A DNA stretch of 64,000 bases from Klebsiella phage KP2025 (PP919962.1); one strand, 5' to 3'. Positions 12,179 through 34,633 are shown, counted from the stretch's first letter. The notes: generated from the letters alone by a model not told the origin. Program-made: numbers and translations.

Positions 12179-12260
12179 TACAGCGTTTTCTATAGTGAGC
12201 CATACAAACACCAGGGAGCACCATAAAAACCGCTTAGAACGCATTACAGGAGCTTAGACA

Positions 12261-12443
12261 ATGACATTAGAACAGATTCAAAAGGCACTAGCCCAGGGCG
12301 GCAGACTTTCAGCACGTTACCGTGATCAATGGGGCTTTATCATTAGCGGCGTGATCCTGGCTATTGAGGGCGGCGACCTGCTGATCGATACCCTGAAAAA
12401 CCGAGTGAAGCCGGAGATGGTGATATCTATCAAGTACCTTTGA
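12261..12443 (+). CDS. hypothetical protein
   Basis: RBS embedded in conserved element copy D (12229-12260). Confidence 0.5.
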   Translation: MTLEQIQKALAQGGRLSARYRDQWGFIISGVILAIEGGDLLIDTLKNRVKPEMVISIKYL

Positions 12444-12534
12444 TTGATAGGTTTAAACGATTAGACACTGCATCGATAATGGCACATAGTGAATACATAA
12501 AGCGGGGCAAAGGCCAGCTAGGGGAGGAAACGAA

Positions 12535-12918
12535 ATGAAAAAATTTATCATCGCCGCTATGCTGGCAGCAGTAAGCGCCAGCGCAGCAGCAGACACCGAG
12601 ATCAACGTGATGAGCGCAAGCCGTGATTTACGCGCCAGCATTGAAAAAATGTTAATTGTATCAGGCGATAATAACGCAACGTTACGATCTTACACCTTAT
12701 CAAAAACCTTTGAGGACGCGCTTGATTCTCAAATGATACCTATTCTCAATAATAACCCTGATGCATCATGCGAGCTTATCGCAGCGCGGATCGCGGAAAA
12801 CGGGCGGCAGAACTACGCGCCTTATCAGGTTAACCCACTTATGACAAGGGCTATCGATAATATGATCGGTAAAATGGTTGTTTATACTATGGCGCGGTGT
12901 TATTACTTAAAGGGTTGA
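12535..12918 (+). CDS. secreted or periplasmic protein
   Basis: GGGGAGGAAACGAA ATG. Signal peptide MKKFIIAAMLAAVSASAAA. Confidence 0.6.
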   Translation: MKKFIIAAMLAAVSASAAADTEINVMSASRDLRASIEKMLIVSGDNNATLRSYTLSKTFEDALDSQMIPILNNNPDASCELIAARIAENGRQNYAPYQVNPLMTRAIDNMIGKMVVYTMARCYYLKG

Positions 12919-12973
12919 CAGGAAGCACTTGATCGATTATCTTTAAGCCAGGCAAACAAAAGGGTAAAGAAAA

Positions 12974-13249
12974 ATGATTCAGGCTAACACTTTAATGATG
13001 TTTCAGGAAGTGCAAAACGCCGCTGTAATGGTTGAGCAATTCCAGGACGGCGACACCATGATCGCCACGTTGAAAGAGAACGCCGAAAGCATCCTAATCA
13101 TTAGCTTGAAAACAGTTTCAAAAGGTTACTACTCCCTTGCTTATCATTTCATTACTAATGATGATGAAACAAGCCAGGATTTTTCCTTGCCTTTCCCGGC
13201 AAATTATGCGCCTTCTTTTGTAGCGGCAATTGTTAATGATGTTTTCTAA
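12974..13249 (+). CDS. hypothetical acidic protein
   Basis: ORF with AAAGGGTAAAGAAAA ATG. Confidence 0.55.
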   Translation: MIQANTLMMFQEVQNAAVMVEQFQDGDTMIATLKENAESILIISLKTVSKGYYSLAYHFITNDDETSQDFSLPFPANYAPSFVAAIVNDVF

Positions 13250-13615
13250 TGGGTAACGAATAAAGAAAGTCAATAGCTTTTCCAGTTATTTTTCATTTTT
13301 GCGTTATGCAAAAAAGTGAATTTAAAGACTTCTCACGCAAGATGATTAAGGGTATGGCAAACGGTTAGAGCCTCTTAGAATGCGTTTTAGAGCGTTTTAG
13401 AGGGTATTGACTTTTCCCGAAATACTCAAAGCGTCTTAAATTTAGTTTCATCGTGTGATTATTTGCATACGGGTGCATTTCTATGCAATTTAGTGAATAA
13501 TGTAAAAATGCAGAATATTACATTCCTCCCTATTGACTACCGCGCCCAATTTGTTATGATTTATCACATAGGGCGGGGCAATAATGCAGCGCCACAAAAT
13601 CCGAAGGATTGCATC

Positions 13616-14074
13616 ATGAATAAATTCTGTGTAGGTCAAAAAGTTATTGATTGTTTCAATGATCGTAAACTGTTAACGATTGTTAAAACTTTTGAATCTG
13701 GTCAAATCGAGCTTGAAAACGGCGTGATCACCTATACGGATCGGGTTCAACGCCAAGAGCATTACCTTGACCATACAAATTACCTGTACCATCATTCTCG
13801 TTTTGGTGATGCTGTATGCATGATCAATGAAGCGTTTCAAGAGTACATTTCAGCACTTGCCGAAATGGGAGATTTATGCTCTTATCCTGGGGAATCTGTT
13901 TTCATAATGAAAGCGCGTACCATGTGCCAAACGTGGATCGACGAAGCCGCCGCGAGGATTGAGCATGGTTTAGCCTGGAAGCGTACAGCAGAACATAATT
14001 TATCACAGTGGTATCGTGTACCGCTTGATCATCACTTCCCATTCCTTAACCCTGAAAATGTGACAGACTACTAA
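13616..14074 (+). CDS. hypothetical protein
   Basis: TTGACT-N16-TATGAT promoter at 13536 plus GGGCGGGGCAATAATGCAGCGCC hairpin. ATG 13616 preferred over the track's upstream start. Confidence 0.55.
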   Translation: MNKFCVGQKVIDCFNDRKLLTIVKTFESGQIELENGVITYTDRVQRQEHYLDHTNYLYHHSRFGDAVCMINEAFQEYISALAEMGDLCSYPGESVFIMKARTMCQTWIDEAAARIEHGLAWKRTAEHNLSQWYRVPLDHHFPFLNPENVTDY

Positions 14075-14083
14075 AAAATAGTG

Positions 14084-14143
14084 TTGACAGCGCCCAATAA
14101 AGGGCGCATAATTCATTACATAAGGCGGGGAGTGGTTCCCCGC
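14084..14143 (+). promoter_or_regulatory. promoter with palindromic spacer plus 5' UTR stem-loop
   Basis: TTGACA, spacer GCGCCCAATAAAGGGCG, CATAAT 14107-14112, hairpin GGCGGGGAGTGGTTCCCCGC. Confidence 0.65.
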
Positions 14144-14161
14144 TAAATGAGAGATTTAATT

Positions 14162-14386
14162 ATGTTCGATTTAGACAGACTGGCAACAGCGATTGAAAAA
14201 GCAGGTGATGCAAAGTATGGCATCCAAGATCATTACTTTATCGGTCAATATCCTGATGGTACTTACTACGGTGTATTGTCTAATAAAGTGAAAAGCCGTA
14301 GCAGCGCCGCGCAACTGCGAAGCCCGGAATTTTTCGAACAAAAAGGCATTAAAGCGATCAAGGTTATGAAGCGTAAAGCTAAATAA
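14162..14386 (+). CDS. hypothetical protein
   Basis: Leader GAGATTTAATT ATG. Confidence 0.5.
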   Translation: MFDLDRLATAIEKAGDAKYGIQDHYFIGQYPDGTYYGVLSNKVKSRSSAAQLRSPEFFEQKGIKAIKVMKRKAK

Positions 14387-14388
14387 AT

Positions 14389-14418
14389 TTGACAACGCGC
14401 CCGGTAAGGGCGCATAAT
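14389..14418 (+). promoter_or_regulatory. promoter with palindromic spacer
   Basis: TTGACA, spacer ACGCGCCCGGTAAGGGCG, CATAAT 14413-14418. Confidence 0.6.
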
Positions 14419-14447
14419 GCTACCAAGTCAATAGCGAGAGCGACAAT

Positions 14448-14684
14448 ATGAAAACGAAAAGCATTCTCATTAACAAAAAATTTCCCAATCGTGTATGGGA
14501 GATCAGCGAAGTGATCAACGCGGGGACGATTGAACAATATAACCGTTTGATCGGGTATATCCGGGAAACTGAATGCGGTTATGTGTGGACTCATTCTGGA
14601 CTAAACCGCGAAAGCGCAAGCTATTTCCCAACAAAACCCCTTGCGCTGGTAGGTTTAAAGCTGGTGCATCAAGATTATAAATAA
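14448..14684 (+). CDS. hypothetical protein
   Basis: ORF after promoter 14389. Confidence 0.55.
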   Translation: MKTKSILINKKFPNRVWEISEVINAGTIEQYNRLIGYIRETECGYVWTHSGLNRESASYFPTKPLALVGLKLVHQDYK

Positions 14685-14691
14685 TTTATTT

Positions 14692-14724
14692 CGCCCCGGG
14701 GCTTGATCTCCCTGGGGCGTTTTG
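14692..14724 (+). terminator. rho-independent terminator overlapping next promoter
   Basis: CGCCCCGGGGCTTGATCTCCCTGGGGCG then TTTT. Confidence 0.6.
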
Positions 14725-14777
14725 CTATCCTTATTTTGTGGGCGGGAATGGTTCCCGACACATAACGGGGATTTAAC

Positions 14778-15077
14778 ATGCAACCTTTACAATTACTTTC
14801 CACTTTACGCGCTATCGCCAACAACACTCTGATCGCTTGCCAGCGCCAGGAGTTTAAACCTGAATTCATCTATAAGAATCATAACCAGCAGTTAGCCACA
14901 ATTGAACAGGCAATTAGTGGTTACAAAATGGGGGTAAAGGTTAACGCGAAATATAAAGCGGAGATCAAGAAAATAACGCTTGCACCAATGAAGGAAAAGA
15001 CCTATTATCTAATCAGCGAGCAGGTGAAAGGCGGCGTAAGCCAGTTAACAAGCGCCATAGAATTTATGAAGCGCTAA
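14778..15077 (+). CDS. hypothetical protein
   Basis: Preceded by GGGCGGGAATGGTTCCCGAC hairpin. Confidence 0.55.
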   Translation: MQPLQLLSTLRAIANNTLIACQRQEFKPEFIYKNHNQQLATIEQAISGYKMGVKVNAKYKAEIKKITLAPMKEKTYYLISEQVKGGVSQLTSAIEFMKR

Positions 15078-15117
15078 CAATCCAGGAGGGCGGCAGCAAT
15101 GCCGCCAACAATGAAGA

Positions 15118-15381
15118 ATGAAAAACATCATTTACCGATTGACAAAACGCAACATTCTGATCGCTACTGTGATCGCTTGCCTTTTCGCTTTCGTTAGTAA
15201 CGCAACGTTTAACGCTGTGGGCGGGATGATGTTTAACGCTGGCAACGTTTCAACAGCTAACACAATGATCGACCTTTTGCAACTTTTCTTTTATGTTGCC
15301 TTTCGTTTAAAAATAGCTTGCAAACTGGATCGCTATGATGTACCTTTTATTTGTGGCGGCGTGATAGCTATTGTATGTTAA
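15118..15381 (+). CDS. membrane protein
   Basis: Hydrophobic. Preceded by GGCGGCAGCAATGCCGCC hairpin. Confidence 0.5.
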   Translation: MKNIIYRLTKRNILIATVIACLFAFVSNATFNAVGGMMFNAGNVSTANTMIDLLQLFFYVAFRLKIACKLDRYDVPFICGGVIAIVC

Positions 15382-15394
15382 CCGGAGTAAAAAC

Positions 15395-15688
15395 ATGTTA
15401 AGATCTAACAAAAATTTAAAATTACGTCAATCCCTCGTTAATATGGCGATCAGTGTTGAGCCGTACAAACGAAAAGAGCCTAAGCAAGATATGCGAGGAC
15501 GGAAAACAACCTGGACAGATCAACAGGTATTAGAGATCCGGGCCTTACATAAATATGGCGGCATGTTACCCGCCGAAATTGCAGAACGTTACAACACGAC
15601 AAAAGGCGCAATAAATAGCTTGCTTTCTTATGTAACCCGCGTACACTTAGAGCCAGAAAGAAAACATTTACCAGCGAGAGAGGCTTGA
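15395..15688 (+). CDS. small helix-turn-helix protein (possible transcription regulator)
   Basis: CCGGAG RBS then ATG 15395. HTH-like GGMLPAEIAERYNTTKGAINSLLS. Confidence 0.5.
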   Translation: MLRSNKNLKLRQSLVNMAISVEPYKRKEPKQDMRGRKTTWTDQQVLEIRALHKYGGMLPAEIAERYNTTKGAINSLLSYVTRVHLEPERKHLPAREA

Positions 15689-15763
15689 CAATAGCAGCGG
15701 GTCTGGTAAAGTGTATCACGTAGGCCGAGGAATAAGCCGAAGCCCGTCAAAGAGGTTAGAAAC

Positions 15764-15961
15764 ATGTTTACTTACTTGCTAATTAATGATTCATCTAATG
15801 AAGTGGTACATACTGATAAACCATCTTTACCGGGTTTTCGTCATTTTGGTAAATATGAAAATTGCAAGCAAATTTCGTGCTTTACTGGAAAGGTCATTTC
15901 CACCGTTGAGGATGATTTGGAAATCCTCACAAAAATTTGTAACTTGCGTTTAACTAAATAG
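15764..15961 (+). CDS. hypothetical protein
   Basis: TTGACA 15676 promoter and AAGAGGTTAGAAAC ATG. Confidence 0.45.
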   Translation: MFTYLLINDSSNEVVHTDKPSLPGFRHFGKYENCKQISCFTGKVISTVEDDLEILTKICNLRLTK

Positions 15962-15963
15962 GA

Positions 15964-16356
15964 ATGATTCTCATGTCCAACTTCGATATCTTTTTAGCGG
16001 CTTATATTGAGGCTATGTTGTGGAGTAGTAGCGGGACAACCCCGGACGGGGAAGATCTGGAAAGTCTGGAAGGGTTCGAACTTTCCACCGAAGCAAAACG
16101 CAAGGCAAAGGAAGAATGCGAACAATTCTTATTTGTATCACAGATCCTTTTCCTGGGGCTGCCTGAATGGTACGGAAAAGGCGACGGCGGGATCTATACT
16201 TATGCGGGGCATGATTTTTGGCTTACTCGCAACGGTCACGGCGCTGGATTCTGGGATCGTGGGCTTGAGGATATAGGCGACCGCTTAACAGAAGTTAGTA
16301 AAACTTTTGGGGAGCTTGATCCATACATTGGCGACGATGGGAAAATTTATTTTTAA
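15964..16356 (+). CDS. hypothetical protein
   Basis: Start region carries the GAATGATTCTCAT motif. Alternative ATG 15973. Confidence 0.5.
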   Translation: MILMSNFDIFLAAYIEAMLWSSSGTTPDGEDLESLEGFELSTEAKRKAKEECEQFLFVSQILFLGLPEWYGKGDGGIYTYAGHDFWLTRNGHGAGFWDRGLEDIGDRLTEVSKTFGELDPYIGDDGKIYF

Positions 16357-16441
16357 AAACGCTTGCAACGCTGATCGCCGTTTGCTATAGTTACTTTGAA
16401 GGGCGGGAACTTCTCCCGCTCAATCCTCAAAGGGTAAGAAA

Positions 16442-16705
16442 ATGGAAATCATCCTGGAACGTTACACCGTCAAAGAAACTGGCCTGATCGCTTTCAAACG
16501 TTTGGTAGTGGTTCAAAATGCAAATGGACTCTTTGAGGTTGTTAAAGAAGTTGATTATGGTCGGGGCGCTGGTGTGACAGTGGCAAAGATGCCTATCAAG
16601 CCTTATAAAACCCGTAAGGGCGCAGAAAAGGCGATGCAAGCCTATCAGCCTAAACGCTATCAAATGACCCTAGTCGAGGGTTTAATGATGGAAGGTAAAA
16701 TCTAA
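16442..16705 (+). CDS. hypothetical protein
   Basis: TTGCAA-N17-TATAGT promoter 16369 and GGGCGGGAACTTCTCCCGC hairpin upstream. Confidence 0.55.
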   Translation: MEIILERYTVKETGLIAFKRLVVVQNANGLFEVVKEVDYGRGAGVTVAKMPIKPYKTRKGAEKAMQAYQPKRYQMTLVEGLMMEGKI

Positions 16706-16751
16706 CAATTCAGGGGAGCCGCTACGGTTCCCCATCTTTGGAATAATAAAA

Positions 16752-16946
16752 ATGACTAGTAGCGAAGAAATTAGAAAAGCCATAGCTGTTTTACGCTATC
16801 ATAACCGATTAAAGGTTATTAATGACCCTGATTATGTAGGATCAACATTTGAGGCGGATACATTGGACAGTATATCATCGTTAGCAGAGTTACATAAACG
16901 TATGACCGAAAGTAACAGATCGGATTTTATCGGTGGGGAAATATAA
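16752..16946 (+). CDS. hypothetical protein
   Basis: Preceded by GGGGAGCCGCTACGGTTCCCC hairpin. Confidence 0.45.
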   Translation: MTSSEEIRKAIAVLRYHNRLKVINDPDYVGSTFEADTLDSISSLAELHKRMTESNRSDFIGGEI

Positions 16947-16947
16947 T

Positions 16948-17274
16948 ATGATTATCTTTTGCAACATTCTCAAAAAGTATGTTTTCCAAATGTCAAGTTT
17001 TCGTGTCTATTGGTCTAAGCGTGGACACTACACTGCCAGCAGTAAAGCGGGAGCTATGCCAGGCACTGGAAACGGAGAGATCGAAAGCACAGGAGCCACA
17101 ACAGGAGAGGCCGTTAAAAACTTACATTTAGCCTTGATCCAACGTAGAGCAGCATTGCAAGCCAAAATTGAAGAGGTGGAGGAAGCAATGTATCAAGTCT
17201 CCCGTAATGGATGGAAAGCAGAGGATTTGTTATTGTTACCGAAAGAAGGCGAGATCGGCAGCAAGAAACGCTAA
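16948..17274 (+). CDS. hypothetical protein
   Basis: GGGGA RBS then ATG 16948 (track GTG 16933). Confidence 0.45.
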   Translation: MIIFCNILKKYVFQMSSFRVYWSKRGHYTASSKAGAMPGTGNGEIESTGATTGEAVKNLHLALIQRRAALQAKIEEVEEAMYQVSRNGWKAEDLLLLPKEGEIGSKKR

Positions 17275-17288
17275 AATCTTTACAATTC

Positions 17289-17316
17289 CAGGGCTTGCTT
17301 TTTGCCCTGGTTTTGC
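17289..17316 (+). terminator. rho-independent terminator
   Basis: CCAGGGCTTGCTTTTTGCCCTGG then TTTT. Confidence 0.6.
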
Positions 17317-17738
17317 TATTATCTTTTATAGGCGATGGCACCTGATGCAGGGGGAGACAAACACCGAACCTGCCTAGCATTCAGGGAAGCTAACCGAACC
17401 TGGACGCCTCCCTTCAAATGAGAATTACTCGCAACAAACATCGTGCCAACTTTACTTTCTAAATGAGAAAAATTCTTATTAGTGAGATCTATTTGTTTAT
17501 GAGCTAGGGTATTGCCAGGACACAAAAGCGCTTAAAATCGATTCTAGAGCGTTTTAAAGGTATGTATGTTTATACAGGACTTGAAAATAAATTTGACAAA
17601 GATTTTATAGTGTGCTATTCGCATATGATTGTTTTCTTTACAGTTCTTTACAAATCTACTCTTGCATGAAATATCGGTTATGGTATTATTTATCTCGTAG
17701 GGCAGGAACACGAAATCAACTTAACGAGGTAAACGAAA

Positions 17739-18107
17739 ATGACTATCATCAATCTGAATACTACTATTAAAGGTAAAGATTTTGGCGGCGTAGTAGATCA
17801 TGATCCGATGTGGTCACTTTCTGTTTTCAAAGGTGATTTAATCGATGTTGTAACCATTGACAGCGGGTCAGATGATTATAAGTGTGAAATTCATCTTACA
17901 AACTGGTACACTGGCAAAGTTTACGCCCTGGATCGCGTGATCATCGGTCGAATCGAAACATTAGAGGACGAAGAAACCGGAGAAACCTTTGATTATTATA
18001 TCAATAGCACTAACCGCGCAGAACGCTTGTTAGAGAAGATGAAAGAAAAAGGAACTATTGATTTATCTCACTGGGTGGACATTACAAACGATCCAGCCTA
18101 CAAATAA
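17739..18107 (+). CDS. hypothetical protein
   Basis: AACGAGGTAAACGAAA ATG. Last gene of early block. Confidence 0.6.
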   Translation: MTIINLNTTIKGKDFGGVVDHDPMWSLSVFKGDLIDVVTIDSGSDDYKCEIHLTNWYTGKVYALDRVIIGRIETLEDEETGETFDYYINSTNRAERLLEKMKEKGTIDLSHWVDITNDPAYK

Positions 18108-18120
18108 AACACCATTTCAA

Positions 18121-18149
18121 AGGGGCGCACAAAGCGCCCTTTCTTTTTG
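18121..18149 (+). terminator. rho-independent terminator
   Basis: GGGCGC-ACAAA-GCGCCC then TTTCTTTTTG. Confidence 0.7.
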
Positions 18150-19670
18150 CCTATCGTTTAATGATAGCTTTTACCGATTGAAATCACTCACAGCAGAAAA
18201 GTGAATAAATCGCGTTATGAGGTTTTCTAAGCAAGGTTGACTAACTACCAGGGGCAAACGGTAAGCCGCTTAGAATGGCTTACAGGAGCTTTAAAGGGCA
18301 TAGCCACTATCTAAATAATCAATAAGTCCATAAATCTAACGATCTAATCAATAATGATAATCAATCTCATATATCCGTGATTAATTATGCAGAATATTGC
18401 ATAGTGTGATAGTGAGAATCATTTACAATCAAAGTAACAATTGACAATTTATCCAATCATAAACAATCAAATAATAAATAGATAAATAGTTATCTTGCTA
18501 ATCTATGCACCTGATATCATTTCAATAATTAACAATAACACAATAAAACAATCAACTAGTCAATAATAAGCAATGAAACTATTATTAACACTATTAATCT
18601 ACAATTCATTCTTACAATAATAATCTATGAAATAATTAGCAAAGAATGTATTAGCAAGCCTACGCGGGAAACGTAGGCTGCTAATAATAACACAACTACA
18701 CCACCTCATTTCGGAATAATCCCTGATTATCCCTCATGTGATTATGTAGCTTGCAATGCTTGCAAGCGTAATGATGTATGTGATACATCATAACACTCAC
18801 AATCATTACGTGTGTTATTATTAGCATATAAAGTAATTAACATTCTAACAGAATCATTCATTGTGAAACAATTAGCACACTATCTATTTGCGGAGGAATT
18901 ATTGAGTGAATAACGAAAATAATTCTATAGCTAATGATTAATGATAGAACTATTACGCAGCGAAAATATTACACGCTGAAGCGTGGAATGTTGAGCATTA
19001 ATGAGAATAAGAATTAATATTATTCGGGCGAGCAAATGCCCACGAAGTGGGCTATTGTTGAGCCACTTCTCTTAAAAGAGAAATTTTTAGGAATTATCTT
19101 GATTTTCGAGCCGTTTGATGCTATGCGCAGCATACCACTGTTCACTTATACAGTGGATTTGTCATGAGAATCGTTATCAGTCGCCTTTTGTGGCAATTTG
19201 GCACCTTGTAAACACATGTTTATTAATGCCAAACTATTGATTTATAAGGATTTATTGTCAGTTTATCGTGATGGGCATGGAATACGGTCAATCTTTGACC
19301 AAAAGTGTCGTAAGTTATTGAATGATATTAAGAATGAGAATGATTCGCATTGATATTTGGGACTCGCGGAAATTTGAAAATGGGGGTGCCCGAAAATCGC
19401 GTTAAGCACCTCTCGCAAGCGAGCCATATTACCGCCAACATATTGATATTATTGACATTTCTTTGCCAAATAGGGGGTGGCTTAAAAATTCCGGATATAT
19501 GGGAGAAATTTTGTAGTTTTTGTGGTAAATTGTATGTAAAATAATCAGCAATAATAATGTTTAATTGATAGATATTTCCGATGATAATCCTATGTAAATA
19601 GGGTAGCTTTTTATTTCCGGGTGTTGTAGGATGATTGTCATGAAAGATTGCTATGTGTAAGGAGAGAAAG
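18150..19670. other. 1.5 kb A+T-rich ORF-free region with CAAT/AATAA low-complexity tracts and several hairpins
   Basis: No ORF of 60 aa or more with an RBS. Hairpins at 18656-18682, 19038-19052 and 19136-19157. Copies of ATGAGAAT motif at 19164 and 19333. Confidence 0.6.
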
Positions 19671-19766
19671 ATGGAAGCGTTAATGATACTTGGTGCTATA
19701 GTTGTGTTGCTGCTGGTACTATATTTTGCTCCAAGAGATGGTTCAGACTGGGATACATATTTCTAA
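19671..19766 (+). CDS. small membrane peptide (31 aa)
   Basis: AAGGAGAGAAAG ATG; hydrophobic. Confidence 0.35.
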   Translation: MEALMILGAIVVLLLVLYFAPRDGSDWDTYF

Positions 19767-19780
19767 GAGAGGAGAGTGCA

Positions 19781-20515: not shown

Positions 20516-20520
20516 TTAAC

Positions 20521-26951: not shown

Positions 26952-26960
26952 GGAGAAGAG

Positions 26961-27116: not shown

Positions 27117-27361
27117 GAGGCGCTATGCGACGTATACTGTGTTGGTTTTTAGCTGGGGTTTTAGGGCTTTCTTTTTAGTAGTGTGTGATAAGCTGGCAGA
27201 ACTTGCAAGTGGTGCTGCACATAAGCAGAAGGTACAAACAGAAGAGTGTATCTATCTAAAATACAAAAAAGATGCTGAAAAGTTCCTTGACAAGGATTGT
27301 CAAAGGTATGTAAGATATAAGCAAGATAACTGACTAGGTAATTAACTTAGAGAGGTAGAGT

Positions 27362-27625
27362 ATGACTCTGGCAGACAAAGTGCTACAAAACGTTAAGAGT
27401 AAAGCCATAGTGTGTAGAGCTAAAGCTTTCGAATCCTATTACTATGATTTGAAGAAAATGGTGAAAGATCCTGACCTACTAGAAACAGGGGTTGTACACT
27501 ACTATCATCGTAACCATTTAACTAATCAAATATTCAACAATAGAGGCACGAATAGCAGATGGTATGCAACTACTACGTATACCACTGAAAATAAAACTGG
27601 TATTAGTCTTTCTTTAATGAGATAA
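27362..27625 (+). CDS. hypothetical protein
   Basis: GAGAGGTAGAGT ATG. Confidence 0.5.
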   Translation: MTLADKVLQNVKSKAIVCRAKAFESYYYDLKKMVKDPDLLETGVVHYYHRNHLTNQIFNNRGTNSRWYATTTYTTENKTGISLSLMR

Positions 27626-27633
27626 GGAAGTAT

Positions 27634-27876
27634 ATGAACATATTCACTGAGCAACGTATGGGTACACCAATTACAGAAGATGAAAGATTCGCTATTTCTA
27701 CAGAGCTTAACAATCTGGAAGCCCTGTGTCATGATGAAGCATGGATTGCTAAGGAGGTAGCCGCTTGCACAGATTTGATGGGAAGTTGGGATAAAGATCT
27801 AGTGCTATTGTGTCTTGAGCATGACATAAACATGTTGCGTCGTACTCTCGAAACAGGTATAGTGACAGAACATTAA
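27634..27876 (+). CDS. hypothetical protein
   Basis: TAAGGAAGTAT ATG. Confidence 0.55.
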   Translation: MNIFTEQRMGTPITEDERFAISTELNNLEALCHDEAWIAKEVAACTDLMGSWDKDLVLLCLEHDINMLRRTLETGIVTEH

Positions 27877-27901
27877 CGCTACATACAAGGTGTCTTCCAT
27901 A

Positions 27902-28192
27902 ATGAATGATATAGTTAAGTTTGCTCTGGTGATTTCAGTGTTAAGTTTGTTTGGATGGCTTATTCTCACCATAGCTTCACATTTCTTGATGAGAGAGTTA
28001 AGAAAGGAAGAGAAAGCATATGAAGAGACAATGAGACATTTAAGACTATTATGCAGACATGCAAGTTTTGCAGGAGCATATTCTGCCTATAGGGATTACT
28101 ATAAAAAGGATGAAAATCATCTTCCAGCAGATTTATTAAGAAGACACTACCAAGCCGCACGTATAGAATGGTTAGCACGTAACCCAAGATAG
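27902..28192 (+). CDS. membrane-anchored protein
   Basis: ATG 27902; N-terminal TM segment. Confidence 0.5.
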   Translation: MNDIVKFALVISVLSLFGWLILTIASHFLMRELRKEEKAYEETMRHLRLLCRHASFAGAYSAYRDYYKKDENHLPADLLRRHYQAARIEWLARNPR

Positions 28193-28202
28193 GAGAATAG
28201 AT

Positions 28203-28631
28203 ATGAATTTTAAAGTAGGCGATACGATTGTTTTTCAACCGCAAGGTAATAATATTGAAGATTACTTCCTTAACGGAGTACAAGAAGGGGATACTGGAAC
28301 TGTTACTTACGTAGATGAAGAAGACGTTGCTGCGGATATGACTACCCAGTGGGGAGAGGTTGTTGAATGTTTTTATCTTAACCCTGAAGATTGTATTGTT
28401 CAGGAGGAAACTCTTCCTTCTGTGGAAGCTACTCTACATCTAGATGCATATGGTAAGCTAGTGTTAGTTGAGCGTAGTAATTGGGAGGATGTATTCATTG
28501 CTGTAGGTAATGACTATAAGAATGGATGCCTACCTACTGGAGAAGGTATTCACCTTACAGCAGAAGAAGCTCTACAGTTAGCTTATGACATTAAACGTAT
28601 GGCTCTAGCTGTACAGAGAGGAAAACTATAA
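28203..28631 (+). CDS. hypothetical acidic protein
   Basis: TAGGAGAATAGAT ATG. Confidence 0.6.
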   Translation: MNFKVGDTIVFQPQGNNIEDYFLNGVQEGDTGTVTYVDEEDVAADMTTQWGEVVECFYLNPEDCIVQEETLPSVEATLHLDAYGKLVLVERSNWEDVFIAVGNDYKNGCLPTGEGIHLTAEEALQLAYDIKRMALAVQRGKL

Positions 28632-28720
28632 TTAATAAATAGATAGTTAATTAGTTAATAATTAATTAGTTTATTAGTTAATTGGTTAATAGGTAGTAGA
28701 TAGATTAACATAACATGTTT
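28632..28720. repeat. low-complexity tandem TTAAT(T)AG(T) repeats
   Basis: TAATTAATAAATAGATAGTTAATTAGTTAATAATTAATTAGTTTATTAGTTAATTGGTTAATAGG. Confidence 0.6.
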
Positions 28721-28841
28721 CTCATAACAAATCTACTACCTCGCTATCGCTCGGTATATAATACTAGGGTAGCATGTTTTTTCTCAAAAGTAAAACAGAT
28801 AATTCCTATTAATAAGGGGAAGATTGACAGTTGGAGGCTAT

Positions 28842-29075
28842 ATGGCAAAGAAGTCTAAAAAAGTGAATGAAGAAACCTCTGAACAAGAAACCTTTGCACA
28901 GATTGAAGATCTGTGTAATGAACCAGCGGCTCCTACAGAGGCGCTGGAAGAGGTTATGTCCTGCAAAGAAGAAAAAAGATTTTGCCCTGTTTGTGGTGGA
29001 ACAGGTTTTGTCTTTGTTGGAGAAGGACAGCTAGAAAGATGCTGGCCTTGTGAAGGCATCGGAATAGTAGTTTAA
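28842..29075 (+). CDS. small zinc-ribbon protein
   Basis: TTGGAGGCTAT ATG. CPVCGGTG...CWPCEG. Confidence 0.5.
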   Translation: MAKKSKKVNEETSEQETFAQIEDLCNEPAAPTEALEEVMSCKEEKRFCPVCGGTGFVFVGEGQLERCWPCEGIGIVV

Positions 29076-29168
29076 GCGTTTACAATGTGCGGCTACCGCA
29101 CAGAAGTAAATCGCTATATACTAAAGATCGCGCCTTCGGCGCTCGGATAAATCCTAAGCGGGGGTCAA

Positions 29169-29360
29169 ATGATTAGAAGTTATCACAGATGGTTAACCAT
29201 CCAAGAGAAGAATACCCTCCGTGGTGTTCCAGGGTACAGCCCAAGCACGGATGATATCTTAGATAAGATGGAGGAATTCTTCAACGAGCCTCGTTCTCAT
29301 CTAAAAGAGGTACTTGGGGCATGGGATGGTACGCCGGAAAGTGTAGGAGAACGTGGATGA
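29169..29360 (+). CDS. hypothetical protein
   Basis: ORF with GCGGGGGTCAA ATG. Confidence 0.5.
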   Translation: MIRSYHRWLTIQEKNTLRGVPGYSPSTDDILDKMEEFFNEPRSHLKEVLGAWDGTPESVGERG

Positions 29361-29764
29361 TTACCTTAGAGCAATTCCAAAACATGGAGCGAGGTACTAT
29401 CTTCTACGTTTGTTGTGGAGGTAACGCCAATAACCTCGTGGTAGAACGATTCCATTCACTAAAAGACTTGGACAGAGGTGAGGATAGTGTTATGGTGTTG
29501 ACTTATTGTGGTGGCAGCACTTTCCAAGGTCATCTGCACGGCGGCAATGGGTTATACCTGAACGAGGAAGAAGCCAAAGAGCACATGGCAAAACGTGCCA
29601 AATGGATACATGATCGCAGAACGGAAAATTTAAAATCCATGTTGCTTAACTTACAAGCTGACCTGGATAAGCATCTTGACAGTGAGCCTAAATTAGATTA
29701 TGTTTATCTGGACAGAACAGATGAACCTGAACCAGAGGGGTGGTGGTATGACAAAACAATATAG
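29357..29764 (+). CDS. hypothetical protein
   Basis: TAGGAGAACGTGG ATG. Confidence 0.55.
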   Translation: MITLEQFQNMERGTIFYVCCGGNANNLVVERFHSLKDLDRGEDSVMVLTYCGGSTFQGHLHGGNGLYLNEEEAKEHMAKRAKWIHDRRTENLKSMLLNLQADLDKHLDSEPKLDYVYLDRTDEPEPEGWWYDKTI

Positions 29765-30032
29765 GATTTTAGAACGCCCACAATTCGAAAAAGAAAGTGT
29801 ATATATTGTTCAACGGACTCGAAAATTCCTTTGGTTGTTTCCTTATTGGGCTACCTATCAAGGCTACACATTAGCCGGTAATGAAGATTGTATCTTCAAT
29901 ACTATAGAAGATGCTAAAAGTTTTATTAAAGATACTGCAAAGTTTAATCGCTGGTGCGCCGAGAGAGGTGATCGTGTGATTGCTGTGTACCAGCTAAATA
30001 ACGATGGTGAACTGGAGGAAGTTGAAACATGA
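29748..30032 (+). CDS. hypothetical protein
   Basis: GAGGGGTGGTGGT ATG. Confidence 0.5.
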   Translation: MTKQYRILERPQFEKESVYIVQRTRKFLWLFPYWATYQGYTLAGNEDCIFNTIEDAKSFIKDTAKFNRWCAERGDRVIAVYQLNNDGELEEVET

Positions 30033-30187
30033 AAATAGCCCTTGTGTTTTTGGTAGGATTTGTGGTATCATTCTTTATGCTTTGTGGAGGTAGTGTTCTC
30101 TTTCATTATGGACTCGATGGTTTTGCTGTCTTTTTAGGGAGTCTTGCCATTGGATCTATTACCGCGATTATTGCAGCCAATAACTAA
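30029..30187 (+). CDS. small membrane protein (52 aa)
   Basis: ATGA overlap; two hydrophobic segments. Confidence 0.4.
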   Translation: MKIALVFLVGFVVSFFMLCGGSVLFHYGLDGFAVFLGSLAIGSITAIIAANN

Positions 30188-30203
30188 TGAAGGATATTGC
30201 AAA

Positions 30204-30836
30204 ATGAAAATTGGTATCGGTGTGATCACTATGGGTGTTCGCACCATTAATAGAAAACTATTTGAAAACAGTGAACATGGGATTTTTATCTACACAGATA
30301 AGGAACGTTTAGGCCCAAGTCATGCTCGTAATAAAGTGTTAGAGCACTTTGACGGTTATGATCATATTTTTATATTTGATGATGATTGTTTCCCTACAAA
30401 ACTTGGTTGGGAAAATTATTTCATCACTCAAGCTTCTGAGCATAACATCCATTATATGGCTATTCCAGAAGTATTTGGTGGTCAGTTTGTATCTAGTGAC
30501 AAAGAAATGCAGTATTGGTTTAGCGCATTAGGTTGTTTCGTGTATCAAGATAAGGTTGCAATGGATGTTATTGGTGGGTATAATACTGCGTATAACAGAT
30601 ATGGTTATGAAGATGCAGGGCGATCTCGTAGAGCATTACAGGCTGGCTTAACAGGACATAACAATGCTTGGGGCTTTCCTGTGCGAGGGTTGTCTTACAT
30701 ACATTCTGAAGATGTATTCGGAGAGAATCCTGCCCCGAACATTCAGACTTCTGAAAAGCTGGCGTATATCGCACAAAACCAACCGATCTACCAGAAAGAG
30801 ATTGAAGGTAAACAACTTTTCTACCCATACAAATAA
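30204..30836 (+). CDS. glycosyltransferase-like protein (DxD motif)
   Basis: GVITMG...IFIFDDDCFP is typical of nucleotide-sugar GT-A-fold transferases. Confidence 0.55.
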   Translation: MKIGIGVITMGVRTINRKLFENSEHGIFIYTDKERLGPSHARNKVLEHFDGYDHIFIFDDDCFPTKLGWENYFITQASEHNIHYMAIPEVFGGQFVSSDKEMQYWFSALGCFVYQDKVAMDVIGGYNTAYNRYGYEDAGRSRRALQAGLTGHNNAWGFPVRGLSYIHSEDVFGENPAPNIQTSEKLAYIAQNQPIYQKEIEGKQLFYPYK

Positions 30837-30846
30837 GGAGAGAGAA

Positions 30847-31056
30847 ATGGAAATGCCAAACCAAGAGATTATCGAGCAAGCAATTATCCTCCTAGCTGAA
30901 AGTTGCCAGGCAGACATGGCGGTTCTGTTTGTTGCAGAGCCAACTCAGGATGCTATTGATCGTATGATCGCAGCAGACACTGCGTGGAGAGAGTTTAGCG
31001 CTGCTCACCCTGAGATTGAACAGTACGTTGATTGGAAAGAGTTGCAGGGGGATTAA
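30847..31056 (+). CDS. hypothetical acidic protein
   Basis: TAAGGAGAGAGAA ATG. Confidence 0.5.
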   Translation: MEMPNQEIIEQAIILLAESCQADMAVLFVAEPTQDAIDRMIAADTAWREFSAAHPEIEQYVDWKELQGD

Positions 31057-31057
31057 C

Positions 31058-31423
31058 ATGTTAATTAAAGAAAACTACAAAAACTATAGCAGCAGCATAA
31101 ACTTCATTGACTCCAATGATAACTTCGTTGGTTTCGATATGGGTGGTCAGTATTGCGAACAGTTCGGCTGGTACATCAGTCGTGAAGCGATTGCTTTCGA
31201 CGATTATGGAAGTTCTGTCGAACTTCAAGAAGAAGATCTGGTAGGTTATCGTTTTGATACCACTTTTGTCGATAACTACAATTTTGATGAAACTGTAGTG
31301 TTTCGTCTGGTGAGTGATAAAGGCGGTGTTGCATACCTGCATCTGTTCAACTCTCATAATGGCTACTACAGCCACGGTTGGGAGTCTACAATGGATGGCA
31401 TTTCTCGTGAAGGGTATCTATGA
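31058..31423 (+). CDS. hypothetical protein
   Basis: GGGGGATTAAC ATG. Confidence 0.55.
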   Translation: MLIKENYKNYSSSINFIDSNDNFVGFDMGGQYCEQFGWYISREAIAFDDYGSSVELQEEDLVGYRFDTTFVDNYNFDETVVFRLVSDKGGVAYLHLFNSHNGYYSHGWESTMDGISREGYL

Positions 31424-32043
31424 GTGATGCTAATTACTGGGACAGGGTGAAACCCCTCGTTCCAGGTGTAGTAGTGAAGTACGCTGGGTCAAAAAGCAGC
31501 GATTTTTACCTACTACCTGAGCTAGGTACACTACTAACTCTTATTGCAGAAGATATTCAGATGGGTTTCAACCCTGTTTGGATTTGTCTCTGGTATGATG
31601 AGGCTGGCAGAGTGAATCTCGTCCCTCTTTTGAAGAATGTGCTAGCGCCTGCCGAAGAACCGATTGATCCACGTACACAGGAAGTAGCTGATCGTTATTA
31701 TCCGTGGACAGGCAAAGCCTTAGATCTGAAATTCTTACAGAAGTCTCTTGACTCCCTGTTGAATCCAGTGCAAAATGAACCTGTTCCTGATGAGAAACCT
31801 GCCTCAAAGTTTTCTGAGGTAACGTTCCTCACTGATGGAGGTAGTGCAGCATTAAGTAACGTTCGCTTCCCTGTCACTCTACGATTGACGGACGAAGAAC
31901 ATAAACTATACCCAGAGCTAGATGGTGTTACCATCCTTGGTGGAATACTTAACATGCTTCCTGGTATTGATAAAGACCATAAATTCGATGATGATAAGTT
32001 CTACTTGTTCTACATCAACGAAGAAATCACCTATAAGGAGTAA
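31420..32043 (+). CDS. hypothetical protein
   Basis: ATGA overlap; 207 aa. Confidence 0.6.
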   Translation: MSDANYWDRVKPLVPGVVVKYAGSKSSDFYLLPELGTLLTLIAEDIQMGFNPVWICLWYDEAGRVNLVPLLKNVLAPAEEPIDPRTQEVADRYYPWTGKALDLKFLQKSLDSLLNPVQNEPVPDEKPASKFSEVTFLTDGGSAALSNVRFPVTLRLTDEEHKLYPELDGVTILGGILNMLPGIDKDHKFDDDKFYLFYINEEITYKE

Positions 32044-32168
32044 TGATGATTACCGCAATCGTATTTTTCGCGCTGGGATACCTCACCCACAAATACAAAG
32101 ACGTGCTGATCGTTAAGATTGAAGCAGCTACTGCTAAAATCCAAGCGTTCCTCGACTCTAAACGTTAA
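32043..32168 (+). CDS. small membrane peptide (41 aa)
   Basis: TAATGATG overlap. Confidence 0.35.
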   Translation: MMITAIVFFALGYLTHKYKDVLIVKIEAATAKIQAFLDSKR

Positions 32169-32223
32169 TACCTATTAAAGGCTGTATCTTGATAGGTACA
32201 GCCTATCAAAGAAGGAGAAAAGC

Positions 32224-32397
32224 ATGTTTACAGAAACCAATTTCAAGTGTGTTCATTGTGGTAAATCATTTGGCGACCATAAGGCAAAGACTTTTCATTG
32301 CCCTCGTAAAGGTCGTGGTAATTTAAAAGGTTTCGATCCATCACATGTGTATTCGCCTAACCGTGATAAGCCGGAAGAGGACAAATTCACCATCTAA
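32224..32397 (+). CDS. small zinc-ribbon protein (57 aa)
   Basis: AAGGAGAAAAGC ATG. CVHCG...HCPRKG. Confidence 0.45.
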   Translation: MFTETNFKCVHCGKSFGDHKAKTFHCPRKGRGNLKGFDPSHVYSPNRDKPEEDKFTI

Positions 32398-32406
32398 GGA
32401 GGTTTC

Positions 32407-32529
32407 ATGTCTACAGTTATAATCATCGTTACAGTGCTGATCATCTTTGGTGCTGCCAAGTACAGTCTTATTGCCGCTCTGGTAGCTGGCATGGTATTGG
32501 GACTCATTTTACCGAGGCTCATGAAATGA
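32407..32529 (+). CDS. small membrane peptide (40 aa)
   Basis: AAGGAGGTTTC ATG. Confidence 0.4.
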   Translation: MSTVIIIVTVLIIFGAAKYSLIAALVAGMVLGLILPRLMK

Positions 32530-32909
32530 AGTTGTGGCGTGTAGCAGGGAAGGACGGTAAAGGTTTCTACTACACAGAAGTAAAACCTGGTATTACGATG
32601 AGCCAAGCTGTAAGCAACGCAATCAACCGAGATATTGGGATGATGGATGAACAGCACCCTCGTCCTAGTGACGATGGTATCCCGGATGTTGAAGACCACC
32701 ACCGCTTTGCTTTCTCTTCAATGGGCCAACTGTACAATTGGTTTGATCCAGAAATGTTTTCTGCCAGTTGTAAGCAAGGTGCTATGCTTGAGGTGTGGGA
32801 AGTGGATTCACGGTATGTGAAGTTTGGTCGAACTCAAGTGTGCTTTGAACAAGATAAAGCAAAAAGAATAAAAGTAACAAGACTGGAAAAACACAAATTG
32901 AGGAGATAG
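32526..32909 (+). CDS. hypothetical protein
   Basis: ATGA overlap. Confidence 0.6.
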   Translation: MKLWRVAGKDGKGFYYTEVKPGITMSQAVSNAINRDIGMMDEQHPRPSDDGIPDVEDHHRFAFSSMGQLYNWFDPEMFSASCKQGAMLEVWEVDSRYVKFGRTQVCFEQDKAKRIKVTRLEKHKLRR

Positions 32910-32910
32910 T

Positions 32911-33201
32911 ATGGAACTCGTACAAGAAGTTTATGATAAACTGAAAGATAAAGGCTTAGATTGGCCTATGTATGCTCTTGTCGTGCTAAGAGATGATGAC
33001 GGGGAGATAAAGTTCTCATCCCTGAGTAAAGATTATATCTCAGTAAGCCCAGAGAATAATATTTATATGCGAGGCCAAGACTGTCTGTTTAATAACAGAG
33101 TGCTGCCTGAGCCGTACTTAGGATATGGTACTAAGAATGCTATGGAGATTGTGACTCGTTACGAGTTTGAACAGTTTTATTTTACTAAAGAGAATAAATA
33201 G
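32911..33201 (+). CDS. hypothetical protein
   Basis: GAGGAGATAGT ATG. Confidence 0.55.
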   Translation: MELVQEVYDKLKDKGLDWPMYALVVLRDDDGEIKFSSLSKDYISVSPENNIYMRGQDCLFNNRVLPEPYLGYGTKNAMEIVTRYEFEQFYFTKENK

Positions 33202-33209
33202 GAGAAAAT

Positions 33210-33962
33210 ATGAAAGCAAAAGTTATTAGTCCAGCAGGTTATAGTTTTGATGCTCAGGTAGTTGGTAAAGTTTTTGATGTTGTTCAGAATTACGACGTTG
33301 GTGTAGCCCTTGATATTAAAAACACGTTTAACGATGGGTTTTGGTATTTTTCTAAGGGGAATGTAGAACTGATTGAAGATACAGTTTCTGAACAAGATAA
33401 TGGAATTAAATCCTTAAAGGTAGGTAGTAAAGTTTTTCTGAATCCTAAAAGCGAATGGGTTGACTCTCGCTCCGGCAAAAAAGAAAGCTCTAATCCTCTT
33501 GATGTAGTAGGTACAGTTACTCGTTATGATCAATGGGATCTTGACCGTGGTAAGTTAGGGATCACTGTTAAATGGGATAATGGTTTAACTAACAGCTACC
33601 GTGGTGAGGATCTTATTTTAATTGAACAAAAAGAATCAAAGACTAAAGTAAAACAAAAGCCTAAGAAACAAACACAAACTAAAGTTTATATTTCTTACCG
33701 TGATGGTTCTAGTCATTTGACTAAACGTGTAGTTAATATTGTTGTACGTGCAGAAGATAAAGTTATCGCTGTAACATCCGAACGTAATGTAGACGGTTTG
33801 ATCATTCGTGAGAATGTTACTATCCCTTCTACTAGCGTAGACTGGATTGATATTACCAGTAAAGAGGCTAGTCATAGTTACTTCTTTGATGAACAGGGCC
33901 AAGTAAAAGCATCTTGTCAGTGGTTTGGAAAAGACCACAAGTTCAAAACACGTAGTCATTAA
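33210..33962 (+). CDS. hypothetical protein
   Basis: ATAGGAGAAAAT ATG; 250 aa. Confidence 0.65.
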   Translation: MKAKVISPAGYSFDAQVVGKVFDVVQNYDVGVALDIKNTFNDGFWYFSKGNVELIEDTVSEQDNGIKSLKVGSKVFLNPKSEWVDSRSGKKESSNPLDVVGTVTRYDQWDLDRGKLGITVKWDNGLTNSYRGEDLILIEQKESKTKVKQKPKKQTQTKVYISYRDGSSHLTKRVVNIVVRAEDKVIAVTSERNVDGLIIRENVTIPSTSVDWIDITSKEASHSYFFDEQGQVKASCQWFGKDHKFKTRSH

Positions 33963-33968
33963 TAAAAT

Positions 33969-33993
33969 AAACCCGCCTAGTGCGGGTTTTCTT
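33969..33993 (+). terminator. rho-independent terminator
   Basis: AACCCGC-CTAGT-GCGGGTT then TTCTTAT. Confidence 0.7.
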
Positions 33994-34007
33994 ATAGGAG
34001 AATTTTT

Positions 34008-34232
34008 ATGGATGGTCTTTACTTATATTGTCAAGTATGTAATAACTGTGTTGCAGGAGGAAATTGTGGTTGTGGGTGGACTAATCGTTATCTTAAGGAT
34101 GAACAGCCGTTATTAGAAGATATTGCAATGGAAGAACTCATCCAGGAGCTATCGTCACGACTGTTTCATTTCACCCCAGACGAGTTTGAAGATGTCTTAG
34201 ATGAGCTGAGGAGGAATTATGTTAGAGATTAA
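34008..34232 (+). CDS. small Cys-rich protein
   Basis: ATAGGAGAATTTTT ATG. CQVCNNCVAGGNCGCGW. Confidence 0.5.
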   Translation: MDGLYLYCQVCNNCVAGGNCGCGWTNRYLKDEQPLLEDIAMEELIQELSSRLFHFTPDEFEDVLDELRRNYVRD

Positions 34233-34443
34233 TGAAGGGTGTATGGCTTTCTTAGTAGATAATCCTTTTCCATTTAGTGTAGGGGTTCATGTTGGAGAAA
34301 AGATGCAAGATGGTTTATGGCATTGTGTATTGATTAGTAAGATTCATCATTACCAAGAGGTTTACCTTCATACAGATCAGATTGCTAGGATATCCGATTA
34401 TGATGATTTAGTTATTGAACTATATAGTAAGGGGGTACATTGA
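34219..34443 (+). CDS. hypothetical protein
   Basis: ORF overlapping. Confidence 0.5.
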   Translation: MLEINEGCMAFLVDNPFPFSVGVHVGEKMQDGLWHCVLISKIHHYQEVYLHTDQIARISDYDDLVIELYSKGVH

Positions 34444-34521
34444 TAGGATTTTGGGAAGGAGTGTTAGTAACACTGGTAATCGTTGTACTCATTGCAGGTT
34501 ACTTTAGTGATGAATAAAATA

Positions 34522-34552
34522 AAGCCCTCGGAGCGTTTCTGAGGGCTTTTCT
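34522..34552 (+). terminator. terminator of plus-strand operon
   Basis: AAGCCCTC...GAGGGCTTTTCT. Confidence 0.6.
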
Positions 34553-34633
34553 ATATGTAACATGACCCGATGTACTACTTTACACTAAAAGCGCTTAGAA
34601 TGCGTTTTAGAGCGTTACAGACGCTATTAAAAT

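Follow-up and report, generated by a model that had tools for sequence, protein, structure and literature searches.

A helically phased repeat array at five non-coding loci of a Klebsiella phage recurs in phage T5, other phage families, a putative phage satellite and IncX plasmids

Introduction

Arrays of the iteron or centromere type, and of the Xis/Cox type, consist of at least three direct repeats lying one helical turn apart in non-coding control regions. The "mobile regulatory cassettes" of T4-type phages, each an early promoter plus stem-loop (PeSL), were reportedly described by Arbiol et al. in 2010 and are said to be confined to one phage group. In phage T5, the region of the injection stop signal (iss) has been described with palindromes, direct repeats and DnaA boxes (Davison, bioRxiv 10.1101/866236). 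Here we analyse a short intergenic element of Klebsiella phage KP2025 (PP919962.1) in a stretch of 64,000 nucleotides, the whole of which is referred to as the window. An original prediction, made from this sequence, had placed the element at five loci, copies A to E, and had offered a promoter for a phage-modified RNA polymerase, a small RNA family, or a processing or binding site as explanations. We report that the core of the element is a tandem array of 10-bp units and that this array recurs in T5, in several other phage families, in a putative phage satellite and in IncX-type plasmids.

Results

The core consists of 10-bp units in tandem

An nhmmer profile of 50 columns, built from 31 non-redundant core copies of many sources, gave exactly five matches in the 64-kb window, all on the + strand and with nothing else at E<=10, which bears out the prediction of a motif family at five loci; the scores are partly circular because the profile contained the five window copies. 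Megablast of positions 12000-19000 assigned the window to the subfamily Stephanstirmvirinae, as part of a phi92-like Klebsiella myophage to which KP13-26 is the closest record (94.7% identity); FKP3, phi1_175008 and FBKp34 are mosaic relatives. From the left end to ~34.6 kb all open reading frames (ORFs) are on the + strand, and the genes past this point are convergent. The five copies are as follows.

12224..12267, + strand: copy D, core only, CCGCTTAGAACGCATTACAGGAGCTTAGAC; nhmmer 22.2 bits; conserved in KP13-26
13365..13410, + strand: copy A core, four phased units TTAGAG, TTAGAA, TTTAGAG and TTTAGAG, then GGGTAT at the end; nhmmer match 13366-13410, 42.7 bits
17524..17563, + strand: copy B core, middle unit diverged; nhmmer 16.9 bits
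18197..18302, + strand: copy E, a sequence like Box I (defined below), AAAAGTGAAT (18197-18206), then the array at 18260-18300; nhmmer match 18262-18302, 21.8 bits
34584..34630, + strand: copy C, core only; nhmmer 39.8 bits; no downstream gene

The core is an array of units and not one 23-mer. Three to five 10-bp units are present across copies, each with the unit core TTAGA(G/A), usually preceded by GCG(T). Tandem Repeats Finder (TRF) reports a period of 10 and 3.6 copies at 13365-13402, with the consensus TTAGAGCGTT, and chains of at least three phased TTA[GCA]A[AG] hexamers are confined to A and E (shuffle mean 0.065), none being present on the minus strand of the window. In copy E the array comprises four 10/11-nt units, GGTAAGCCGC TTAGAATGGC TTACAGGAGC TTTAAAGGGCA, with periods of 10, 10, 10 and 11, exactly one 10-nt unit more than in copy A. 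Together with the units of Salmonella phage ST-3 described below, the TRF result and the hexamer chains reveal the helically phased direct repeats that mark iteron-type origins. Conservation across 33 non-redundant copies is strongest at CTTAGAA, GCGTT, AG and GCGTTTTA, with an A-run usually before the array and GG(G)TAT usually after it. The 26-nt heart of copy A is unchanged in four close relatives, and the bases on both sides vary.

The predicted relationships between the copies were also recovered. A and C contain an identical 23-mer, CTTAGAATGCGTTTTAGAGCGTT, at 13374-13396 and 34594-34616 (+), none being expected in shuffles, and the variant common to D and E was found at 12230 and 18266. 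B is related but diverged, repeat finding grouping A and B with C in a first family and D and E with C in a second, and the upstream GGCAAACGGT(T/A)AG attributed to both A and E is correct.

The array recurs in unrelated phages, in a chromosomal element and on plasmids

The original prediction proposed that the motif be sought in related phages. A 46-nt consensus gave matches in 466 phage records at E<=0.05. Among them are T5 and other Demerecviridae, Vequintavirinae, Stephanstirmvirinae, Ounavirinae, a KVP40-like Vibrio phage and a jumbo phage. The core is 82-92% identical across families with little other detectable DNA similarity, whose flanks are unalignable; conservation of the core amid such flanks requires selection on it. 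In Vibrio phage JSF12 (Demerecviridae) the motif lies upstream of the A2-A1 operon, in the 360-kb jumbo phage it is found inside the terminal repeat, antisense to the genes of that phage, and in ST-3 (Ounavirinae) at least 13 TTAGAA units occur within one 1.4-kb non-coding region. This ST-3 region (extract 870-1250) additionally contains more than 10 CTTAACA units, then inverted TGTTAAC/GTAACAG and, in the record, a 40-nt poly(A) run.

In T5 the array at 9343-9387 (+) reads AAACGCGTTAGAATGCGATCTAGGACGTTTTAGG (nhmmer 27.3 bits). It is located within the misc_feature 9140-10149, annotated as the injection stop signal, directly after a terminator at 9275-9296, and is followed by TACTGTATAAATATACAGTA and DnaA boxes. 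A second T5 copy near 6291 is weaker and inverted. Other T5-like phages have better copies, up to 40 bits, and the annotation of Salmonella phage S114 indicates a place similar to the T5 iss. A separate feature of T5 and T5-like phages is TACTGTATA(A/T)ATATACAGTA, which we take to be a near-perfect LexA box and which stands directly after the array and before the iss DnaA boxes (T5 ~9400-9420 and ~6200-6215; extract 2545-2570 of a T5-like record); a one-mismatch version of this palindrome, ATGTATGTTTATACAG, is present at 17562-17577 in window copy B.

The TTAGA array is not named in Davison's comparative description of the T5 region, nor is LexA mentioned in that paper (bioRxiv 10.1101/866236). 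The motif is likewise not described in the rV5 genome paper. Literature searches with motif strings returned only chance matches to the shortest string, and those on Stephanstirmvirinae and Vequintavirinae transcriptomes and on Felix O1 repeats returned nothing relevant. The array, the fixed-length cassettes presented below and their spread across phage families, satellite and plasmids appear to be undescribed, T5 sequence containing the array having been in the databases since deposition of the genome.

Exact-pattern scans detected the motif in a ~12-kb element integrated at thrW (tRNA-Thr) in E. coli (NZ_CP022730.1, ~3647800-3660000). This element encodes an integrase together with a major capsid and a "baseplate" protein, includes 2.8 kb free of genes, and has matches in 577 of 5426 complete E. 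coli genomes; from its sequence, it looks like a capsid-encoding phage satellite having non-coding sequences in common with phi92-like phages. Single motif copies occur in Haemophilus and Pantoea contigs, and complete E. coli assemblies yield 670 motif matches on plasmids. In IncX-type replicons the array closes the right edge of a 232-nt block (extract 2304-2534 of an IncX4 plasmid); in two diverged replicons of this type no other non-coding stretch is conserved, and the block adjoins iterons, a DnaA box and a cluster of four GATC sites. The first 60-80 nt of this block match thousands of small ColE1-type plasmids and presumably represent an n'/PriA primosome assembly site region.

Larger cassettes of fixed length are gained, lost or exchanged

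Copies C and D consist of the array alone, outside longer cassettes. The longer cassettes are of two types, A and B, with the following features in the window.

13303..13473, + strand: fixed-length unit A, 171 nt as extracted, with Box I, Box II, core, Box IV and Box V
13305-13324: Box I, TATGCAAAAAAGTGAATTTA
13327-13334: Box II, GAGATCTC in most relatives
~13423-13449: Box IV, CTCAAAGCGTCTTAAATTTAGTT in the window; conserved form CGCTCAAAACG.CTTAAATTTAGTT
13462-13469: Box V, TTTGCATA; conserved TTGCATA
13252..13478, + strand: cassette A indel unit, absent from FKP3 (blastn block map, three-way alignment)
17275..17730, + strand: cassette B, non-coding (blastn block map)
17484..17598, + strand: B-type architecture, GAGATCTATTTGTTT (17484), 48 nt to the first unit of the core (17532), 30 nt to a palindrome and 61 nt to TTGACA
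17562-17577: B-type palindrome, ATGTATGTTTATACAG
17593-17598: TTGACA of the B-type architecture

Identical length, with zero indels over ~165 nt despite sequence divergence, is maintained in 17 diverse homologues of the A-type unit, of phi92-like, Seunavirus/PVP-SE1-like and rV5-like origin. The boxes are conserved and the stretches separating them vary. Inverted repeats are formed by Box I with Box V and by Box I with Box IV, the terminal repeats of the unit being TATGCAAA/TTTGCATA. The B-type architecture generally has a palindrome, (C/A)TGTATAAATATACAG, at +30, with TTGAC following at +61. Ten sequences were compared, those of phi92-like phages together with My1 and DU_PP_V, two T5-like phages of Pectobacterium; spacing is 48/30/61 in nine of the ten and 47/31/62 in FKP3. 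The two types have a common left half, GAGATCT being positioned 48 bp before the first TTAGAA in both.

Comparison of sequences from close relatives indicates that the cassettes are gained, lost or exchanged as blocks. FKP3 lacks 13252-13478, with GAATAA microhomology at the junction, and retains the sigma70-like promoter at 13533-13560. Despite differing flanking genes, KP13-26, FKP3 and FBKp34 have cassette B at 96-97% identity; it is absent from phi1_175008. FBKp34 homology starts at 13286 and stops where the E array ends, at 18296. Different phages have different genes after the element, and the cassettes are found bordering early gene blocks and at the margins of large non-coding control regions. 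Transposition of the miniature inverted-repeat transposable element (MITE) type was rejected, as the FKP3 gap spans 13252-13478, not 13305-13469, and only the GAATAA microhomology is present. Elsewhere in FKP3, at the start of the record (extract 6570-7404), the equivalent of window 19074-19390 is present twice in tandem, which could be an assembly artefact or could reflect physical genome ends or a terminal repeat in the non-coding region.

Surroundings of the individual copies

A rho-independent terminator had been predicted shortly upstream of every copy. This holds for D, E and C, which are preceded by strong hairpins, that before D (12147-12171, -16.8 kcal/mol) ending 57 nt from the copy and that before E lying at 18120-18142. 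It does not hold for A, with a weak AT-rich hairpin only, or for B, which has none. Copy C is situated, as predicted, between the terminator of the + operon (34521-34549) and the terminator at 34635-34654 of the convergent minus-strand operon, with no gene downstream. The proposal that copy D supplies a ribosome-binding site was likewise correct, the second unit of the copy providing the AGGAG of ORF 12261-12443. The distance from copy to next ORF is 0 nt (D), ~90 nt, ~180 nt or >1.3 kb (E), and no ORF follows C. Among four close relatives copy C diverges faster than the adjoining coding sequence and terminators. Because C changes faster than its surroundings, the 23-mer identity between A and C looks like recent exchange or chance retention and not strong constraint at C.

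Copy E is found at the left edge of an ORF-free, AT-rich region of 1.35-1.5 kb. This region, 18143-19670, is rich in short repeats and may harbour an origin, the genome ends or a site of packaging. Two segments within it, 19196-19245 and 19351-19429, are 78% identical, in inverted orientation, to the 2.8-kb non-coding region of the thrW element.

Other repeats were noted in the window. Two sigma70-like promoter families with a GC-rich hairpin between -35 and -10, e.g. TTGACAGCGCCCAATAAAGGGCGCATAATTC and GTTGACTTTTCGTTATGCCGTGCTATCCTGTACGGCATAGAGAA, are represented at 7514, 8916 and 14084 and at 9689, 10033 and 10289. A 36-nt element, composed of the hairpin GGCGGGAATGGTTCCCGCC and an A-rich Shine-Dalgarno-like tail, is present in seven copies (6933, 7906, 8956, 9489, 11519, 14741 and 15089), which adjoin early ORFs, just upstream. 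Palindromes AATGAGAATCATTCTCAT, Fur-box-like with a symmetric change, occur at 5951-6006, 15954 and 29280, and the iss region of T5-like phages has related GCGAATCATTATCATTCGC palindromes.

Promoter, RNA and terminator readings

A sigma70 or phage-specific promoter was considered and rejected. The final T of TAGAAT, which should be invariant, is T, C, A or G among the 33 non-redundant copies, no -35 is present at 16-18 bp spacing in the window copies, and there are only five copies per 64 kb, at no regular distance from genes. The motif furthermore occurs in phage families of differing transcription strategies, in plasmids and in the satellite. No convincing promoter was seen in A-type units by promoter scan and alignment. 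B-type cassettes have TTGACA at +61, but the hexamer 17 bp further down is without the final T in all copies.

The suggestion that the copies form a small RNA family, with C giving a small RNA, fared no better: a terminator is present after C, but there is no promoter-like site upstream and C diverges fast. Rfam at the gathering threshold gave no match over the 64 kb, and at a relaxed E-value, over 12-20 kb, only a chance miRNA match at E=4. Single-sequence folds predict hairpins for some copies, with energies of -19 to -24 kcal/mol and z-scores to -5. Among 16 units, however, paired cells amount to 81.1% vs 81.1% in shuffles and covariation to 0.073 vs 0.076. RNAalifold retains 7 pairs (-2.0 kcal/mol), those of the terminal inverted repeat only, and fold z-scores are negative on both strands (+ strand -2.6, minus strand -2.0). 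The inverted repeats are real; a conserved RNA structure is unsupported, because pairing and covariation show no excess and z-scores are negative on both strands. The copies were also rejected as intrinsic terminators, the core hairpins being weak, G-U-rich and without a T run, and the terminator scan calling no copy. In FBKp34 a D-like copy is annotated as a terminator.

Neighbouring genes and sites

All-against-all comparison of the ORFs within 3 kb of the motif in ~15 lineages yielded no universal neighbour family. The sole protein family common to phi92-like and T5-type neighbourhoods is the T5.007/DUF7177 homologue. In the window this is a 91-aa ORF at 9752-10027 (+), homologous to T5 pre-early T5.007 (DUF7177/PF23801, phrog_3747) with 44% identity; T5.007 belongs to the small set of proteins that every T5-like first-step-transfer region retains, and My1 and DU_PP_V also have a homologue. 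A Pfam search of 85 ORFs of the window early region detected no Xis/Cox/AlpA-like domain. Recognisable sites for host proteins adjoin the motif, namely a perfect LexA-box-like palindrome and DnaA boxes in T5-like phages and iterons, a DnaA box and a GATC cluster in IncX replicons.

Discussion

Of the three explanations originally offered, only a binding site survives the comparisons above, and for a processing site no positive evidence emerged. We favour, tentatively and as possible rather than probable, a cis-acting DNA site for an oligomerising protein, which may serve as an architectural or upstream element in early transcription or establishment. A protein-binding site is preferred to a promoter or small RNA because the motif is near-unchanged in T5, unrelated virulent phages, the satellite and IncX plasmids, and a protein that oligomerises on DNA because of the helical phasing, the change in copy number by whole units, the exact box spacing and the company of LexA-like, DnaA and iteron sites. 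The site comprises three to five direct 10-bp units at intervals of one helical turn, and a single kind of DNA-binding protein would occupy it in several copies, cooperatively and on one face of the helix. The partner would more likely be a conserved host protein than a phage protein, because the sequence is kept across Enterobacterales and Vibrio phages, the satellite and plasmids, with no neighbouring protein in common. The array is one box of larger non-coding cassettes, consisting of Box I, GAGATCT, 48 bp to the array and then either the palindrome and TTGACA or Box IV/V, and cassettes containing it move between genomes as blocks. The protein-array complex may act on early transcription or on DNA establishment, an architectural or upstream role being suggested because the cassettes are located at the starts of early blocks and the edges of large control regions.

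Several observations weigh against such a protein-binding site. No binding protein was found and no known consensus could be matched. By eye, no convincing resemblance was seen to boxA, RfaH ops, the MotA box, PhoP, CpxR, PmrA, the DeoR half-site, Lrp, Fis, IHF, XerCD, KorB or the Cox box; the apparent likeness to DeoR half-sites, Lrp, Cox boxes and KorB is partial. At the loci examined, orientation almost always follows local transcription, which also fits a role at the RNA level, and folding of the + strand predicts some hairpins, in which a few changes look compensatory. The distance to the nearest promoter-like site differs between cassette types, and a simple model of an activator at fixed position is therefore inapplicable. 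Finally, copy C evolves fast, at a place with nothing obviously regulated.

Two alternatives, which we regard as unlikely and to about the same extent, assign the element to replication or to RNA. As an element of replication or establishment, the array would be an iteron-like or priming-associated site of origin-type or first-entering DNA. The T5 copy in the injection-stop region with its clustered DnaA boxes is consistent with this, as are the jumbo-phage copy within a terminal repeat, the kilobase-sized non-coding regions that hold E and the ST-3 and satellite copies, and the IncX array, which closes a conserved 232-nt block that begins with the ColE1-type-matching stretch and adjoins iterons, a DnaA box and GATC sites. 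B-type cassettes also bear, 48 bp upstream, GATCTATTTGTTT, which resembles the oriC 13-mer consensus, GATCTnTTnTTTT. However, five copies are dispersed over 22 kb of the window, two of them core-only (D doubling as a ribosome-binding site and C lying between terminators), no initiator protein is associated and there is no common neighbour. The complementary-strand origin of phage G4, read through, has no visible similarity to the motif, and a G4-type priming origin was rejected on this ground. T5 replication origins, moreover, are reported near the genome centre (Davison, bioRxiv 10.1101/866236). As an RNA element, the + strand core would form a hairpin (AGAAUGC/GCGUUUU, flanked by CCNCU/AGNGG) and the 165-nt unit a long irregular hairpin for processing, stability or termination. 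All window copies are co-oriented with genes, some predicted hairpins are stable, the outer-stem variants CCTCT/AGAGG, CCGCT/AGCGG and CCCCG/CGGGG pair, 81% of cells are paired in the inverted repeats of Box I with Box IV and with Box V, and one D-like copy has been annotated as a terminator. Against these stand covariation and compensatory pairs at the level expected from shuffling, the 7 terminal pairs that alone remain in RNAalifold, negative z-scores on both strands and the lack of an Rfam match, together with loss of the outer stem in T5-like copies, a register that varies between lineages, the position of several copies after strong terminators and the one jumbo-phage copy that is antisense to genes.

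The element might instead have no function of its own, as a recombination linker, a hitch-hiking remnant of exchanged early-gene cassettes or a selfish MITE-like element, which we judge slightly less likely again. Presence/absence polymorphism of the cassettes, homology blocks that end at the element, terminal inverted repeats and fixed length of the units, variable downstream genes, early genes common with T5, e.g. the T5.007 homologue, and the decay of copy C would all be explained. The identity of the core across families whose flanks cannot be aligned argues otherwise, as do the FKP3 deletion, which misses the inverted-repeat ends and left no target-site duplication, and the lack of an associated transposase or homing endonuclease. 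Far less probable, in our view, is a Rho-utilisation (rut) site for antisense or convergent read-through. The complementary RNA, with CUCUAAAACG repeats, would be C-rich, G-poor and periodic, so that an antisense transcript would bear the C-rich strand, and copy C, the second satellite copy and the ST-3 array lie at convergent junctions; most copies, however, are between co-directional genes, and rut sites require no such sequence conservation. A phage-specific promoter or small-RNA gene, the leading ideas of the original prediction, is the least probable of all, although TAGAAT resembles a -10 hexamer and a terminator follows copy C. The last base of that hexamer is free to vary, a -35 is lacking, spacing to genes is irregular, no promoter precedes C, no structure is conserved, and plasmids and unrelated phages have the motif.

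A wider form of the favoured protein-binding site, which we consider improbable, is that the array is the site of a conserved gammaproteobacterial DNA-binding factor, placed by diverse mobile elements in the DNA that establishes them in new cells. At least five virulent phage families, a capsid-encoding satellite and IncX plasmids carry the site, and its places, T5 first-step-transfer DNA, early-gene cassettes, terminal repeats and plasmid origin or transfer regions, would accord with such a role. If this were true, the array would be a common entry or establishment signal; it could be the missing cis-element of T5 two-step injection and could be the means by which the satellite senses or copies its helper. 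If one host protein reads the array, three points would be open to test: it would offer an experimental handle on the earliest events of large lytic phages, it would bear on the long-unsolved T5 injection stop signal, and it might explain the reuse of the signal by satellites and plasmids. The non-coding DNA of virulent phages is almost unannotated, and here a 40-bp element, together with cassettes of 100-200 bp and exact spacing, is common to families with otherwise little detectable DNA similarity; a phage satellite and resistance plasmids of a major family share them as well. Even if the function is modest, the cassettes would mark recombination joints for the exchange of early-gene modules between unrelated phages.

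Comparison with known systems

By analogy, the element is akin to mobile regulatory cassettes and protein-binding repeat arrays. The T5 injection-stop region (Repeat Regions 2 and 3 of the left terminal repeat) contains the homologous array at T5 9343-9387. The T5 array is beside DnaA-box inverted repeats and a LexA-box-like palindrome, in contrast to the window, in which neither paired DnaA boxes (IRD'/IRC', 52-bp spacer) nor DRD repeats are found beside any of the five copies. T5 has one clear and one weaker inverted copy in its left terminal repeat, whereas the window phage has five dispersed copies, and two-step injection is a feature of T5 that is not known for the window phage. With elements of the enterobacterial repetitive intergenic consensus (ERIC) and MITE type, the window element has in common fixed length, terminal and internal inverted repeats, intergenic place and presence/absence polymorphism, but it lacks target-site duplication, precise excision and a sequence match and is present in few copies per genome.

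Iteron or centromere-like and Xis/Cox-type arrays are similar in their helical-turn repeats, whole-unit variation in copy number and placement in non-coding control regions; they differ in that no initiator, ParR, Xis or Cox-like gene is near the window element and no consensus match is verifiable. Like the PeSL cassettes, the window element belongs to short, conserved, multi-copy non-coding cassettes at the borders of early blocks, with flanking genes that are shuffled modularly, as is evident from breakpoints at 13286 and 18296, from a B block that is conserved although its flanks vary, and from indels of whole cassettes. It differs from the PeSL cassettes in that the conserved part is an array of direct repeats in which no promoter can be recognised, and in its spread over phage families, a satellite and plasmids.

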